Virus record (IMG/VR): IMGVR_UViG_3300010352_001202
Direction: 5' to 3' (one strand)
Source of the DNA: a virus
Taxonomy: Duplodnaviria; Caudoviricetes
DNA: 64,000 nucleotides
Shown here piece by piece: positions 3,171 to 49,033 of the stretch; the first letter of the stretch is position 1, and every line of letters starts with the position of its first letter. Under the pieces are notes generated by a model. The model ran no database searches, had not been told where the DNA came from, and saw only the letters and a list, made by a program, of their open reading frames with translations. Made by a program: the position numbers and the translations under genes.

Positions 3171-3932
3171 ATGAAGTCTCTTCTGATAGCACTGAGTTTA
3201 GCAGTTTCGTTTCTGGCATTTGCTGGCCGAGGCCATAAACCTGTGGTACCCGAATTTAGCGCGAAGAGTTATCTTGTTGCTAACGAGGACGGTACGGTGC
3301 TAAGGGAACAGGCCGGTAATATAGTTCGTCCTATTGCATCCATTAGTAAGCTAATGATAGGATTACTTGCTTCAGAGCAGGACCTAACTGAACAACTTCC
3401 AATTCCAAAAACACGAACAGTCCACAGCAGCATCCCTTACAAGATATCAACTCTTTCTAGGCACAATCTCCTAGAGCTTGCATTAATCCGGTCTGATAAT
3501 TTTGCTGCACAGATATTATGTGCCAATCTTCCAAATTGCGTTGAGCATATGAACAGCAAGGCAAAAGAGCTGGGTATGAATAATACATCCTTTGCTGAAC
3601 CAACTGGCCTAGATAGCCGCAATGTAAGTACAGCACAGGATTTATTGCAACTCATGTTGGTAGCATCTGCTAATAGCGTCATCTCCAGTATATCGAGTAA
3701 ACCTAAAGCCGATATAGCTACACCTAAGAATACAGTCCATATCAACAATACAAACCCGCTAACTGCTAAACTTGACATTCTATTATCAAAAACTGGATTT
3801 ACTAACCCGGCAGGTGGCTGCTTGGTAATGATACTAAATTCACCTGTCGGTAAAAGAATCCTTATCTTGCTCGGAAGTACGAATGCTCATACACGCATTC
3901 CCGACATGGAAAGGTTAGTCAAGGAACTGTGA
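3171..3932 (+). CDS. D-alanyl-D-alanine endo/carboxypeptidase (peptidase S11, PBP7-like)
   Basis: Signal peptide; SxxK (ASISK), SxN (SDN), EPTGL and KTG motifs. Confidence 0.9.
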   Translation: MKSLLIALSLAVSFLAFAGRGHKPVVPEFSAKSYLVANEDGTVLREQAGNIVRPIASISKLMIGLLASEQDLTEQLPIPKTRTVHSSIPYKISTLSRHNLLELALIRSDNFAAQILCANLPNCVEHMNSKAKELGMNNTSFAEPTGLDSRNVSTAQDLLQLMLVASANSVISSISSKPKADIATPKNTVHINNTNPLTAKLDILLSKTGFTNPAGGCLVMILNSPVGKRILILLGSTNAHTRIPDMERLVKEL

Positions 3933-11894: not shown

Positions 11895-11971
11895 GTGCCG
11901 GTAGCTCAGTCGGTTAGAGCGTCGACCTCATAAGTCGCGGGTCGTGGGTTCGAGCCCCACCCGGCGCACCA
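11895..11971 (+). tRNA. tRNA with CAT anticodon (probably Ile2, otherwise elongator Met)
   Basis: GTGCCGG/CCGGCGC acceptor, loop CTCATAA, GGTTCGAGCC, CCA; paired 1-72 so not initiator; C4:G69 and C5:G68. Confidence 0.9.
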
Positions 11972-12617
11972 TATCATATTCTTTTACCTTTGCCACAAGT
12001 TCTTCGTAGGTAATAGAGCTTTTGGTATGTTTTTTGGCATTCTCGCTGAAAAGCATAAGTTCACAGTTCAACGGATGTTTTATGTAATATGGATCATACC
12101 CATTTATGATAGCTTCGTTGACACTCACCCTGTGATCTCTTGTCACACCACCTGGATTATCTTTACTCCTCATTCCGTGTTTCCGAATAAGAGTTCCATC
12201 AAAAAGATCTGGATAATCCGATAAAGTGAATGTAAACCAAAATTTGGCGCGCCCCTCGTGACTATATAGTGTTTCGTGATTTTCGCATATTTTCTTTGCA
12301 GTCCGATCTCTCCAAGAATATCCACAATGTTTACAGACACATTTATATAGAGTGGAAAATGGTGCCTTAGGTGATTTTGGTTTAGGTACCGGTCCAGTTC
12401 TTATCTTTGAATAATCTTTCTTCGCATTCGTGTGCTTTGCACTGCAAGATCTGGAACAATAGAAATTGTGTTGTTTCCCCCATTCTATTTTTATACCACA
12501 TCCACAACAGAATTTCGGATTAGCAGCATATTCGGCCATTCGTCTCTGGCGCATAACTTCTCCACCGAGTTTACCATTTTCCTTACTGGCATTGTTTGAC
12601 CATTTGCGTTGCGACAT
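11928..12617 (-). CDS. putative HNH/Zn-finger homing endonuclease
   Basis: C..C, YCSRSC, RDH...HPLNC..M...N..K; TAAATA just before ATG 12617. Confidence 0.75.
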   Translation of the reverse strand: MSQRKWSNNASKENGKLGGEVMRQRRMAEYAANPKFCCGCGIKIEWGKQHNFYCSRSCSAKHTNAKKDYSKIRTGPVPKPKSPKAPFSTLYKCVCKHCGYSWRDRTAKKICENHETLYSHEGRAKFWFTFTLSDYPDLFDGTLIRKHGMRSKDNPGGVTRDHRVSVNEAIINGYDPYYIKHPLNCELMLFSENAKKHTKSSITYEELVAKVKEYDMVRRVGLEPTTRDL

Positions 12618-12677
12618 GCTATATTTAGTTCGTAACGGTGTCGGCCTATTGTAATCCCGAACCAAACGAAAGACACT

Positions 12678-13061
12678 ATGAACCACGACGACTACATGGC
12701 ACTCAAGCGCGGTAAGCTCACGCCCATGCGCGGCTTGCAGAGCATCATTACCGAGGTTGGTGCTGGCGTGTATGCCTACATGGTTATGCTTTCTAATGCG
12801 GGACGCGACCAGGAAGCAGGTTTCTACGGCGATATTCGTGAGCGTGCATTCAGGATTCGTAGCGAGGTCTACGACAATCCTGTGCAGGAAAATCTTGACA
12901 AGTGTTCGGCTGATATGATGTGTATCTATCGCGACTTGAATACTGCCTACATCTTCCTGCAAGCACACAAGCCCGATGAGGCTTGTCTCCTGCAATCGGT
13001 TACCAATACTGCTTGCGAGCTGGAGTATGACATCAAACACTTCCTGGATGCTGCAACATGA
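12678..13061 (+). CDS. hypothetical protein
   Basis: ORF in coupled run. Confidence 0.65.
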   Translation: MNHDDYMALKRGKLTPMRGLQSIITEVGAGVYAYMVMLSNAGRDQEAGFYGDIRERAFRIRSEVYDNPVQENLDKCSADMMCIYRDLNTAYIFLQAHKPDEACLLQSVTNTACELEYDIKHFLDAAT

Positions 13062-13628
13062 TCCACTTCGATTTCATTGTATCCGATGTTGAAGCAGAAG
13101 ACATTATGGGTGCAATTCATGATCAAATCATCAAATGCCATTCGGATCGAATCGAAGCGTGGGGGACCAGCGGGCACGAAGATCCTGCCAAGAAGGAATG
13201 GTTTACTGCCCGCGTCAAGTACCTCGAAGAGCTGAAGGCAAAAATGACAAATCGGAGGGTTAATGAAGGTTGATAAGAAAGATGCCAAAGTCGGTGATTG
13301 GAGAGTCGACATCATCGAATCCGAACGCGGGTGGGGTAGCAAGGTAGACGATAGCGTTTACTTCACTGATCGGACTGAAGCTGCTGCCTGGGTGAAAGAA
13401 TACAACGACAAGTTCAATCCGCCCGTGCCAGCGCCGGATTGGTACATGATGGCAGTGGCACCTGTTCAAGTCAGGTAAAGGTGGGTGGCGGATGCGAAAG
13501 TGAAGGCCGCCTACGGACAGTGGATACATCAGTGTGTGGGCTAGACCAGCTGGCGAATCCGCCGTGCTCTGTATCGTGACTGTCACTAATCCTTTGACAT
13601 CTATATCCTGTTGTTGCATAGTAGAGCT

Positions 13629-14150
13629 ATGCGACACCTACTCCTATCTTTAGCTTTGATTCCTGCTGTTGTTACCCCTGCAGAAATCACCATGTGTTAC
13701 CGCGACAAGGCTGCTGAATATAGGCAAACTCAGGAAAAATGCTTGGCCACGATGATCTACGGCGAAGCTCGAGGGGAGGCGTTTACGGGCAAGGTGGCAG
13801 TTGCCTACACTGCGCTGAATCGTGCTGTAAACCGGCCTTTATGCGATGTAATCCTGCAGCCTAAGCAGTACAGCATCTTTAATGGCAGCGCAGAGTGGCA
13901 TGCTGCTGCAACAGACCCACTTGTGGAGCCTGCACAAGAAAACAAAGCCGATGAAGAAGGATGGCAAGATTCGTTGCGTGCGGCCAAGTTGGTTATGGCA
14001 GGCGAAGTTAGTGACCCATCTAATGGTTCCACTCATTATATTTCTGATCGCGTAATGAAACTAAAGAAATATAAGTATCCGAAATGGTCGCGAACATATG
14101 TGCAGGTTGCTAAAATAGGAGAGCATAGATTCTTCAAACAAAATATATAG
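13629..14150 (+). CDS. SleB-like cell wall hydrolase (Hydrolase_2)
   Basis: CLA..IYGEARGE, VA....LNR, QPKQYS, IGEHRFF; signal peptide. Confidence 0.9.
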   Translation: MRHLLLSLALIPAVVTPAEITMCYRDKAAEYRQTQEKCLATMIYGEARGEAFTGKVAVAYTALNRAVNRPLCDVILQPKQYSIFNGSAEWHAAATDPLVEPAQENKADEEGWQDSLRAAKLVMAGEVSDPSNGSTHYISDRVMKLKKYKYPKWSRTYVQVAKIGEHRFFKQNI

Positions 14151-14152
14151 AT

Positions 14153-14812
14153 ATGGATTACAATCATCATTATACCAGACTAATAGAAAGAGCAAAAACA
14201 CGGACTCCAGATCCTGCTATTCATTATGAAAAACACCATATTATTCCGCGGTGTCTCAATGGTACAAATGATAAATCAAATCTAGTGAAACTAACACCCG
14301 AAGAGCACTATGTTGCACATCAACTATTGGTAAAAATATTTCCAGGAAATCGCGGATTAGTTCATGCTGCCACCATGTTATGTGTCGATGGTTCGGGTCA
14401 TAGATCAAATAATAAAATCTACGGATGGCTTAGAAAACTCGATGCTGAAACAAAAAGTAAATCGCAAAGGGGTAGAAAACTAGGACCAAATAAAAAGAAA
14501 GGCCGACCTGGTCATCCTTCGACCTTAAAGGGAACAAAACGAGGCCATCCATGGAACTACGGATTAAAAACAGGACCGAACGGTAAGGCCGGAATAAGTA
14601 CAGGACCAAATAAAAAGAAGGGTCGGCCCGGTGCTGCCTCTGCAAGGAAGGGAAAGAAATATGGTCATAATGCTAAACTCGGAAAACCAGATGGTCCACA
14701 AGAAAAGATTATATGCCCGTACTGTGGTAAGGAAGGCGGAAAAGGCGGAATGAAAAGATATCATTTTGTTAACTGTGAGTTCTACAAGCCTATTGACATC
14801 ACAACGGTGTAA
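14153..14812 (+). CDS. HNH homing endonuclease (MobE-like N-terminus)
   Basis: Y..LIERAK, EKHHIIPRC..G...SNLV.LT.EEH..AH.LL; repeated GPNKKKGRPG tail. Confidence 0.9.
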   Translation: MDYNHHYTRLIERAKTRTPDPAIHYEKHHIIPRCLNGTNDKSNLVKLTPEEHYVAHQLLVKIFPGNRGLVHAATMLCVDGSGHRSNNKIYGWLRKLDAETKSKSQRGRKLGPNKKKGRPGHPSTLKGTKRGHPWNYGLKTGPNGKAGISTGPNKKKGRPGAASARKGKKYGHNAKLGKPDGPQEKIICPYCGKEGGKGGMKRYHFVNCEFYKPIDITTV

Positions 14813-14903
14813 TCGTATACTAGCTACGCCGTGTGAAGGACAGTGCGAGCGGAGGCAATATCAATAAGACCTCCCCCGTTCTTGTCTCGGTAAATAGACG
14901 ACT

Positions 14904-15186
14904 GCCCCGATGGTGAAATCAGGTAGACACAAGGGACTTAGACAAATTTGAGTGCCTGGTTGGAAACAATCAGAGTAGAACCCGTCAAATTCGGTGAACG
15001 CTGTAAAATGCCAATACCGAGCCAAGCCCAAAAGGGAAGGTGTAGAGACTAGACGGCGGGAACCTAAAGCGAAAGCTATGGTTAAGGTATAGTCCAGACC
15101 ACAAACAGAAATGGTAACGAAAGTTATAGTGGTAAGAAAATCCCTCGGCTTCGGCCATGCCGGTTCGATTCCGGCTCGGGGCACCA
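14904..15186 (+). tRNA. trnL: tRNA-Leu(TAA), intron-containing (exons 14904-14939 and 15137-15186)
   Basis: GCCCCGA/TCGGGGC acceptor, AGGGA/TCCCT anticodon stem, spliced loop CTTAAAA, long variable arm, CCA. Confidence 0.92.
14940..15136 (+). ncRNA. group I (IC3) self-splicing intron, 197 nt
   Basis: P AAATTCGGTGAA, Q ACCGAGCCAAG, R GTGTAGAGACTAGACGG, S AAGGTATAGTCC; P1 U.G at splice site; terminal G. Confidence 0.92.
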
Positions 15187-25614: not shown

Positions 25615-26277
25615 ATGGACTATTCGCGCATTTACAATCAGCTAATAGAACGCGGGCAAAATCGTCAAGAAGGCAGGCGCCGTAAAGACCTGGTTAGTTT
25701 ACTGGGACACATAGAACGACATCATATAAAGCCGAGATCTCTCGGTGGTGCAGATTCTCCGGAAAATCTAGTATACCTTACCCCGGAGGAGCATTTTGTT
25801 GCACACAAACTTTTAGTAAAGCTTCATCCAAATGATATCGGTCCGTTACGGGCGCTGATGATCCTATCGGGAAGAAATAACAAATATAGAAACAACAAGT
25901 TATTTGGGTGGGCCCGCAAACGCTATTCGGAAATGCGCAAGGGTAACATACCTTGGAATAAGGGTCTAACCTGGTCGGAAGAAGTAAAAGATAAGATAAG
26001 GGAAGCTCGTAAGTTGCAAGTTATCACAGACGAAACTCGGGCAAAGATTAGTGCCGCCGGAAGTGGTAAAAATAATCATTTCTATGGTAAAAAGCATTCG
26101 GCCGAATCAAAAGCAAAAACGAGTGCAAACAATAAATCCAGTAAGAAAGTATCCTGTGATGGTGTTGTGTATAACTCAATGGCCGATGCCGCCACGGCAT
26201 ATGGATTCAAGTTATATGTAACAGTAAAGAAAAGATGCTTATCCGAAAAATGGCCCGGTTGGTTCATACTCGATTGA
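25615..26277 (+). CDS. HNH homing endonuclease with NUMOD3-like tail
   Basis: ERHHIKPRSLGG...NLV.LT.EEH..AH; PWNKG; N.FYGKKHS. Confidence 0.9.
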   Translation: MDYSRIYNQLIERGQNRQEGRRRKDLVSLLGHIERHHIKPRSLGGADSPENLVYLTPEEHFVAHKLLVKLHPNDIGPLRALMILSGRNNKYRNNKLFGWARKRYSEMRKGNIPWNKGLTWSEEVKDKIREARKLQVITDETRAKISAAGSGKNNHFYGKKHSAESKAKTSANNKSSKKVSCDGVVYNSMADAATAYGFKLYVTVKKRCLSEKWPGWFILD

Positions 26278-48439: not shown

Positions 48440-49033
48440 GTGAACTACCGAAAAATATACGATGCTCTAATAGAAAGAGCACAAAATAGAACAATAACGG
48501 GTTATGTGGAGAAACACCACATAACCCCTCGGTGTTTGCAGGGTTCCAATAATCCCGAAAATATAGTGATTCTCACCGCAAGAGAACATTATATCGCACA
48601 TCTTCTTCTCATAAAAATATATCCAGGAAATCCCAAGCTGGTATATGCTGCCGCAATGATGTGTTCTGCCTCGGGCAGATTGCAAAGGTCCAACCGACTT
48701 TATGAGAGGTTGAAGATTGCCCGCTCTGCGGCGATGTCTGAGCTTCATAAGGGTAAGATTGTAAGTGAAGACACGCGACAAAAGCTACGAGAAAAGAATA
48801 AGAACTACCGTCCCGCCGAAGATGCTAAAAGGCGCAGTCGAGAAGCACAAATCGGGCACAAGACCTCGGAAGAAACTAAAAAGAAAATCTCTATTTCAAA
48901 TACCGGCGGAAAGTCTAGAAAAGGTCAAGTCTGGATGACAAATGGCATAGAAAACACAAGCATCTATCCAGAACATATTCAAGATTGGCTGACCAGAGGA
49001 TGGAGGAAAGGCCGGTCTGCATTCAAAAAATAG
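48440..49033 (+). CDS. HNH homing endonuclease
   Basis: EKHHI.PRC..G.N...N...LT.REH..AH.LL; W..NG/GW..GR tail. Confidence 0.9.
   Translation: MNYRKIYDALIERAQNRTITGYVEKHHITPRCLQGSNNPENIVILTAREHYIAHLLLIKIYPGNPKLVYAAAMMCSASGRLQRSNRLYERLKIARSAAMSELHKGKIVSEDTRQKLREKNKNYRPAEDAKRRSREAQIGHKTSEETKKKISISNTGGKSRKGQVWMTNGIENTSIYPEHIQDWLTRGWRKGRSAFKK

Follow-up and report, generated by a model that had tools for sequence, protein, structure and literature searches.

We examined a tRNA-Leu(UAA) gene that lies in two pieces at positions 14904-15186 on the plus strand of the window, by which we mean the whole stretch of 64,000 nucleotides (nt) taken from the IMG/VR virus record IMGVR_UViG_3300010352_001202. 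The two pieces can be read directly from the sequence. The 5' exon ends in ...GGGACTT (in a longer read of the same end, ...AGGGACUU) and is followed by an intron that begins with AGACAAATTTGAGTG and finishes with GTGGTAAG, its final base being a G. The 3' exon then reads AAAATCCCT...GGGGCACCA, starting with AAAAUCCCU and closing on a discriminator A and an encoded CCA. Default ARAGORN missed the split gene at 14904-15186; with introns allowed, the program returned a tRNA-Leu(taa) with a 197-nt intron, and the joined exons formed a canonical class II tRNA-Leu(taa) of 86 nt. The Rfam model RF00028 (Intron_gpI), whose gathering score is 50, matched positions 14930-15117 with 58 bits (E 4e-12, full model, positions 1-253), the sole match in the entire virus record. 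The plus strand of the intron holds no open reading frame (ORF) of more than 37 codons. A first-pass annotation of this DNA had proposed a group I intron without an ORF at U34^A35 of tRNA-Leu(UAA) and had named an Rfam search as a check; the Rfam match above the gathering score, the ARAGORN result and the junction bear this out, and the core strings that it quoted are all found in the intron. The record measures 152.7 kb, and its completeness is estimated by CheckV at 39%; because 152.7 kb would be only ~39% of the genome by this estimate, we take the virus to be a jumbo phage. Besides the split tRNA gene, the window encodes at least five HNH endonucleases and a helicase with a PHROG match.

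The fold of the intron was drawn by hand along the Rfam alignment and then scored on an alignment of 26 phage homologues (A1). The 62 proposed pairs form in 95.8% of cells, a share that drops to 30-41% once the partners are shifted by 1-3 columns. Both-sided changes occur in 31 of the 62 pairs, and none of 500 shuffles reached any of the observed measures. Compensatory swaps are numerous in P2, P3 (where four of six pairs change on both sides), P5, P8, P9b and the anticodon stem. The positions expected to matter for catalysis hardly vary: the P1 pairs C14937-G14952, U14938-A14951 and the splice-site wobble pair U14939.G14950 are the same in all 26 homologues, as are five of the six P7 pairs, the remaining change being one AU/UA swap. 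Among the constant P7 pairs is G15047-C15094, which we take to be the guanosine site by analogy with G264-C311 of Tetrahymena. A P10 is possible between three U's of the guide and the A's that open the 3' exon. The 3-bp stem of P5 bears a conserved UGUAAAAU loop, in which a recognisable 11-nt receptor was not seen, and the P5abc extension is absent. Because the structure is conserved with covariation and the U.G pair, the P7 G-C pair and the terminal G are invariant, the intron looks catalytically intact, and from this we infer catalysis itself.

Intronless versions of the gene indicate where the intron begins and ends. A 27-mer of the joined exons, GGTAGACACAAGGGACTTAAAATCCCT, which spans the predicted junction GGGACTTAAAATCCCT, occurs uninterrupted and exact in at least 120 viral contigs, and in 117 of 119 newly fetched loci it falls within an ordinary tRNA-Leu(UAA) gene. 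Over the whole tRNA, these intronless genes are up to 92% identical to the joined exons of the window. Since the exact joined 27-mer is found in intronless tRNA-Leu(UAA) genes, the intron borders are supported by natural evidence.

Table. Features of the split tRNA-Leu(UAA) locus and structural elements of its intron (window coordinates).
Feature	Position	Strand	Details
Cell-wall hydrolase/endolysin-like gene	13611-14150	+	Pfam Hydrolase_2, E 4e-14; PHROG 938 endolysin
Free-standing HNH homing-endonuclease gene	14153-14812	+	219 amino acids; PHROG 655 'homing endonuclease', E 3e-53
Promoter, sigma-70-like (TTGACA-17-TATACT)	14793-14821	+	11/12 consensus positions; overlaps last HNH codons
Leader	14822-14903	+	82 nt, promoter to tRNA; conserved hairpin GGAGG...CCTCC
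tRNA-Leu(UAA) 5' exon	14904-14939	+	Acceptor 5' strand, D arm, anticodon stem 5' strand, C32 U33 U34; ARAGORN
Intron	14940-15136	+	197 nt, group I (IC3-type), ORF-less, after U34
P1	14937-14942 with 14947-14952	+	Exon C-U-U and first intron bases pair with guide UUUGAG
P2	14956-14962 with 14967-14973	+	GAAA loop
P3	14981-14986 with 15055-15060	+	CCCGUC with GGCGGG
P4	14990-14996 with 15015-15021	+	7 bp
P5	14999-15001 with 15010-15012	+	Very small
P6/P6a	15022-15040	+	
P7	15045-15051 with 15090-15095	+	Guanosine-site pair G15047-C15094, bulged A15046
P8	15063-15081	+	CCUAAA...UAUGG receptor-like motif, GAAA loop
P9	15098-15133	+	Two GAAA hairpins
Terminal G	15136	+	Last intron base, invariant in all 26 aligned sequences
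tRNA-Leu(UAA) 3' exon	15137-15186	+	A35 A36 A37 A38, anticodon stem 3' strand, 13-nt variable arm, T arm, acceptor 3' strand

We drew one viral and one bacterial collection of relatives with a single exact 18-nt motif of the core (R), GGTGTAGAGACTNGACGG, which matched at least 120 contigs in each. Among the matches listed, 91 viral regions contain an intron-split tRNA gene (the window's own copy counted), and in 65 of these 91 it is a tRNA-Leu(UAA) interrupted at the identical site. The other viral split tRNAs among these matches are Arg(UCU), Lys(UUU), Met/Ile(CAU), Thr(UGU) and others. The bacterial matches listed include 67 tRNA-Leu(UAA) genes with an identical split site, most of them belonging to Pseudomonadota and Acidobacteriota. 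In these same matches, the tRNA-Leu introns of viruses go down to 185 nt (median 200 nt) and those of bacteria to 202 nt (median 234 nt); the shortest phage tRNA introns, of 184-185 nt, sit in tRNA-Lys. Because the phage median is 200 nt and relatives shrink to 184-185 nt, the 197 nt of the window intron are typical for the lineage and no record. The suggestion that it is one of the smallest natural group I ribozymes therefore stands only in part: the intron is short, but it is an ordinary member of a phage lineage with relatives of 184-189 nt.

The non-Leu viral carriers comprise tRNA-Lys(UUU) in L044 and L121 (introns of 184-185 nt), tRNA-Arg(UCU) in L045, L056, L065 and L069, tRNA-Thr(UGU) in L063 and an Azoarcus-type tRNA(CAU) in L043 and L113. 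Their introns occupy several positions of the anticodon loop, with splice positions as given by ARAGORN.

Named phages are among the carriers. By DNA similarity, the 735-kb uncultured phage LR756501 has a split tRNA-Leu with a 205-nt intron and Agrobacterium phage Atu_ph07 one with a 278-nt intron, and Gordonia phage Daredevil gave a partial DNA match, inside the intron. In Atu_ph07 (L002 1562-1678; MF403008.1 112825-112941), the deposited annotation has a 'hypothetical protein', AUZ94936.1, spanning the intron's 3' end and the tRNA's 3' exon, and no tRNA at this place; this protein is probably a false gene call from the unrecognised intron. RF00028 gave no group I match on the homologous loci L001-L003, even at E 0.01, and the homology of these loci was shown by alignment instead. 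Both L001 1484-1774 and L002 1252-1613 are clear homologues, yet they are invisible to RF00028. Because it misses them, the model is an unreliable detector for the phage lineage.

Sequence identity and phylogeny group the window intron with those of other phages. Median identity to the window intron is 79% for phage tRNA-Leu introns and 64% for bacterial tRNA-Leu introns. Phage introns in Thr, Arg, Pro and Lys tRNAs are 69-74% identical to it and are thus closer than the bacterial tRNA-Leu introns. In a tree of 117 distinct tRNA-Leu introns (about 210 columns), the window intron falls in an all-viral clade of 31 rows, which has a Shimodaira-Hasegawa-like approximate likelihood-ratio support (SH-aLRT) of 92 and includes the introns of LR756501, Atu_ph07 and L014; a second clade of viral introns (18 rows) is supported at 100%. 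The label changes between virus and bacterium only four times on the tree, compared with 38 times in shuffles. The proposal that phages shuttle such introns between bacterial phyla finds no support here, because phage and bacterial introns separate, with four label changes against 38 expected. Several non-Leu phage introns nest among the phage tRNA-Leu introns.

The lineage itself has moved between genes. Across 52 distinct phage tRNA-Leu loci, the identity between introns hardly follows that between exons (Spearman 0.16). An 83-nt class II tRNA-Leu (L067, L013) and a 73-nt tRNA(UAA) whose variable loop is short (L102, L119) carry introns that are 97-98% identical, and the exons of the two match at only 55-60%, with little in common beyond the anticodon loop. 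Because near-identical introns occupy such dissimilar tRNAs, we conclude that this ORF-less intron lineage has moved from gene to gene. The tRNA(UAA) genes with a short variable loop, of 73-75 nt, occur in L102 (2788-3060), L119 (11077-11347) and L036 (10422-10693) and are unlike class II tRNA-Leu. A search of the window for leftover tRNA-Leu fragments that would mark a cassette replacement, with up to three mismatches allowed, found none.

The split gene adjoins an HNH gene that ends 92 nt upstream on the same strand. Its PHROG 655 match agrees with the first-pass annotation, which had placed an HNH gene directly upstream; its Pfam HNH match, of 17.9 bits, is below the cut-off. Paralogues of the gene lie in the window at 25615-25938 and 48440-48925. 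The hydrolase gene that precedes it served as a synteny anchor, with homologues of 64% identity in the metagenome contig L445 and 55% in L245, and both of these relatives lack the HNH cassette (about 14129-14778). In L445, the hydrolase runs directly into a homologue of window 14779-14880, that is, the promoter and leader. The L445 hydrolase ends in ...HRFYKPVDKRAVRT, the window hydrolase in ...HRFFKQNI and the window HNH in ...EFYKPIDITTV, and the tail FYKPIDITTV of the HNH ORF corresponds to the tail FYKPVDKRAVRT of the L445 hydrolase. Based on this comparison, the cassette interrupts the hydrolase gene within its final codons, and the HNH frame now closes with what was the hydrolase C-terminus. 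Downstream of the leader, L445 continues with a protein gene resembling L245 ORF 2815-3132 instead of a tRNA; L245 has an intronless tRNA-Leu(UAA) very different from that of the window. As judged from these relatives, the HNH gene is an insertion separate from the intron. A similar string, TTCT(T/A)CAA(A/G)C, is found at both cassette junctions (window 14120-14150 and 14776-14812; L445 540-600). Downstream of its intronless tRNA-Leu, L245 has about 240 nt free of ORFs (3258-3498).

L445 and L245 have a homologous TTGACA promoter where their hydrolase gene ends, and in the window the promoter of the downstream unit sits inside the old hydrolase tail. From its match to the consensus alone, it is likely the start of the pre-tRNA transcript. 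The leader is ~72% identical to L445 570-670, and its hairpin shows a compensatory change between the two, with GGAGG/CCTCC in the window and GGCGG/CCGCC in L445. In both sequences the hairpin is followed by CCCGTT(C/T)T. The non-coding element as a whole is ~65 nt long (window 14827-14890, L445 about 615-680), and in L445 it precedes a protein gene. This element could be an attenuator or a leader; the leader (14822-14903) has no Rfam match and folds no better than shuffled sequence (z -0.9).

Homologues of the window HNH gene are at home among intronless tRNA genes. In 27 of 80 viral loci they lie inside intronless tRNA arrays, and in some they stand beside an intronless tRNA-Leu(UAA) (L263, at 12 nt; L257; L277). 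None of the 80 loci contains an intron-split tRNA or the core (R) motif, and in none of the 119 intronless tRNA-Leu loci is a member of this HNH family adjacent to the tRNA. Within the window itself, an endonuclease ORF is beside or overlaps three of the four tRNA genes, intron-bearing or not: a PHROG 1271/10822-type HNH (31414-31821) lies 39 nt downstream of the intronless tRNA-Lys(UUU) at 31301-31375, and a 370-amino-acid ORF on the minus strand (11928-13040), which matches HNH weakly (PHROG 1271, E 5e-4), extends in antisense into the intronless tRNA-Met at 11895-11971. That the HNH gene adjoins the split tRNA is best explained by a general tendency of free-standing HNH genes to settle among clustered phage tRNA genes.

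A different HNH family does associate with the intron in other phages. Genes of PHROG 10822/14736 lie beside 17 of 66 intron-bearing tRNA-Leu genes and beside one of 119 intronless ones (p 7e-8; by unique sequences 11/51 against 1/119, p 7e-6), the p-values being rough because the samples are related. These genes are located -24 to +113 nt from the intron-bearing tRNA-Leu, and some members lie between intronless tRNAs. HNH genes make up at least 14 of the 121 nearest ORFs, a lower bound, and an iterative hidden Markov model search of the HNH neighbours gathered at most 11 unique members without reaching one all-inclusive family. Teamwork between introns and endonucleases is plausible in phages generally, and we do not extend it to the window locus. 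In the second viral clade, a small PHROG 4134 protein is encoded just downstream of the split tRNA-Leu, mostly at 33-85 nt (L013, L024, L027, L049, L053, L078, L079, L088, L100, L102), and an HNH gene fills this slot in sister contigs; the ORF of L013, as called, overlaps the 3' end of the tRNA by 39 nt.

Taken together, we favor, with a probability of about 0.8, the reading that a compact ORF-less IC3 intron splits a working class II tRNA-Leu(UAA) gene of a jumbo phage and that the HNH gene is a separate insertion. The IC3 label is used because the intron is homologous to introns listed as IC3 in the literature. The pre-tRNA would probably be transcribed from the TTGACA/TATACT promoter at 14793-14821. 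The intron would then take the P3-P9 catalytic core fold, with the internal guide and the last exon bases ACUU forming P1 and placing the U.G pair at the splice site. Free guanosine at the G15047-C15094 site of P7 would attack after U14939; the terminal G15136 would next fill the guanosine site, and the 5' exon would attack after G15136. The predicted product, ...GGGACUU-AAAAUCCC..., has a normal anticodon arm. RNase P of the host, to which removal of the leader (14822-14903) would fall, and 3' processing enzymes would complete a tRNA reading the codons UUA and UUG. The intron is a member of a phage-dominated group of compact IC3-type introns that has moved among phage tRNA genes, recognising little beyond the anticodon loop. 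The HNH gene is a separate selfish element that at most could drag the neighbouring intron-bearing tRNA along by co-conversion. On this reading the biology of the locus is ordinary, with a selfish and presumably neutral intron in a working tRNA gene.

The first-pass annotation had instead linked the two elements by collaborative homing, in which the HNH protein (14153-14812) would cut the intronless tRNA-Leu(UAA) of co-infecting phages at the intron site, the intron would protect its own copy, and repair would copy the intron and often the HNH gene with it. We consider this unlikely at the window locus. Such an arrangement has precedents: a cyanophage psbA intron reportedly homes with the help of F-CphI (work attributed to Zeng, Bonocora and Shub, 2009), and trans homing by T4 mobE has been described (PMC2790892). 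The position of a homing-endonuclease PHROG member 92 nt away on the same strand fits the model, as does the syntenic L245, which has neither HNH gene nor intron and whose tRNA-Leu(UAA) is intronless; the enrichment of PHROG 10822/14736 beside intron-bearing tRNA-Leu in other phages and the mobility of an ORF-less lineage would also be expected from it. However, the window HNH belongs to another family, PHROG 655, whose members sit among intronless tRNAs in 27 of 80 loci and never with a split tRNA or the R motif. In L445, the cassette boundary marks a clean insertion at the 3' end of the hydrolase gene that tRNA-Leu does not follow. The L245 tRNA exons differ greatly from those of the window, hence the two do not form a simple presence/absence pair, and three of the four window tRNA genes adjoin an endonuclease ORF regardless of an intron. 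The homing claim is thus left unsupported by the independent insertion into the hydrolase 3' end and by the absence of split tRNAs from all 80 homologue loci.

It is less probable still that the intron benefits the phage, either by splitting the anticodon-loop target of endonucleases from rival phages or by timing the supply of tRNA-Leu(UAA) through a dependence on guanosine or Mg2+. HNH endonucleases are indeed plentiful around phage tRNA genes in the window and related loci, and an intact core has been retained in many phage lineages and several tRNA isoacceptors, but a selfish and phenotypically neutral intron accounts for the same data, and the intron is dispensable, as the intronless allele in at least 120 viral contigs shows. 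That the locus is a decayed relic unable to splice, and the tRNA a pseudogene, is hardly credible, and we reject it because of the conserved core: P5 and P6a are minimal in the window copy and P5 has a C-C mismatch (14999/15012), but the catalytic core is complete (U.G pair, P7 G-C pair with bulged A, J3/4, J6/7, J8/7 and terminal G), the reduction of P5 and P6a is common to the whole phage clade and kept by compensatory changes, and the exons yield a canonical tRNA-Leu.

Several observations weigh against the reading of a working gene with a mobile, phage-type intron and an unrelated HNH neighbour. With three paired positions, one of them the C-C mismatch 14999/15012, and an 8-nt loop, P5 of the window copy is so tiny that folding might need a protein helper or high Mg2+. 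Recent mobility is seen for the lineage, and the window's own copy bears no sign of it: an exact 30-mer from its P2/P3 region matched no viral contig, so that no near-identical copy was found, and the nearest introns are 84% identical. The exact-motif sampling leaves out introns with a different core, including cyanobacterial ones, and the deep branches of the tree are weakly supported. Finally, since another HNH family is enriched there, an HNH gene near an intron-bearing tRNA may still matter.

A broader idea, which we put forward tentatively and as more doubtful than not, is that phages keep their own minimal (184-213 nt) IC3 lineage that hops among tRNA genes by way of the anticodon loop and is mobilised in trans by free-standing HNH proteins specialised on tRNA genes, the window pair being one instance of a general, undescribed homing system. 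The genes visited by the proposed lineage would be Leu-UAA (in two structural classes), Arg-UCU, Lys-UUU, Thr-UGU and others.

Split tRNA genes of this kind are a common feature of phages, as seen in the window, in at least 90 other viral contigs and in cultured phages such as Atu_ph07 and, from a partial DNA match, Daredevil. They go unannotated because default tRNA finders skip them and the Rfam model misses close homologues. As a consequence, the tRNA genes of phages are undercounted, and spurious 'hypothetical protein' genes are annotated across such introns. The phage introns are also naturally shortened versions of a well-studied ribozyme class, ~185 nt at the smallest, and could be used as minimal ribozyme scaffolds. 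Furthermore, ORF-less mobile introns together with one enriched HNH family make a tractable natural system for studying the partnership between introns and endonucleases.

Judged by its sequence, the window intron is of a known kind in a little-described setting, with an ordinary mechanism. By site and predicted architecture it is a classical bacterial/plastid tRNA-Leu(UAA) intron, type Leu.3Ug, which is also common across Pseudomonadota and Acidobacteriota. The tRNA-Leu(UAA) intron is said to have been reported originally by Xu et al. and by Kuhsel et al. in 1990. Our sample includes no cyanobacterial sequence, and the comparison with cyanobacterial Leu.3Ug introns draws on published knowledge. 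The types Leu.3Ug, Arg.5Ug, fMet.2Ug and Ile2.5Ug are listed as subgroup IC3 in a survey that mapped 5292 such introns in bacterial genomes and had phage genomes outside its scope (Williams 2020, bioRxiv 10.1101/2020.01.27.920355). The window intron shares with Leu.3Ug introns the host gene and the exact site (CUU/a...g/AAAA), the U.G pair at -1, the terminal G, the lack of an ORF, the core sequence and the P1-P9 layout, and bacterial examples carry the same 18-nt R motif. Unlike the bacterial ones, it resides in a phage genome and in a phage-dominated clade, with 64% median identity to them, and it is shorter, with P5, P6a and P8 trimmed.

The intron in the pre-tRNA-Ile(CAU) of Azoarcus sp. 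BH72 is of type Ile2.5Ug, belongs to IC3 and measures about 205 nt; its description reportedly goes back to Reinhold-Hurek and Shub in 1992. The window intron is, as had been claimed, shorter than this (197 nt against roughly 205 nt). Both are small ORF-less IC3-type introns in the anticodon loop of a bacterial-type tRNA. In each of them P2 is capped by a GAAA loop, P8 contains a CCUAA(G/A)...UAUGG receptor motif, and the core includes GUCAAAUUCGG, CCGAGCCAAGC and GGUGUAGAGACUAGACGG. They differ in host tRNA, in site (after position 36 in Azoarcus, after 34 in the window) and in the 3' domain, where the window intron has a P9 of two GAAA hairpins and ends in GUGGUAAG and the Azoarcus type ends in ACAAACCGG. 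Introns from Polynucleobacter, Comamonas, Propionivibrio and two phage contigs stood in as proxies for the Azoarcus intron; these tRNA(CAU) introns are 58-63% identical to the window intron and form their own clade with 99% support. Calling the window intron Azoarcus-like is apt only for the shared IC3 core: from the identity values and the tree placement, we reject a specifically Azoarcus-like identity.

Typical phage group I introns are of the IA2/IB type, and the window intron is assigned to IC3 by homology. Like those of T4 td, nrdB and nrdD, of the SPO1 DNA polymerase gene and of S-PM2 psbA, it is a group I intron in a phage genome, here with predicted self-splicing; unlike the T4, SPO1 and S-PM2 introns, it has a tRNA as its host gene. 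As in the T4 mobE system (PMC2790892), a free-standing HNH gene adjoins an ORF-less intron. A 2014 review of bacterial group I introns places every phage example then known in a protein-coding gene, although tRNA genes are numerous in phages (PMC3984707), and our searches of the open-access literature found no paper describing such introns in tRNA genes of phages. A comparable setting is that of the Lak megaphages, whose tRNA introns were tested against Rfam, assigned to no named family and called 'enigmatic' (Devoto et al., bioRxiv 10.1101/356790). In both cases, intervening sequences interrupt tRNA genes of very large phages. Unlike the Lak introns as reported, the window intron is, by sequence and predicted fold, a full group I ribozyme.

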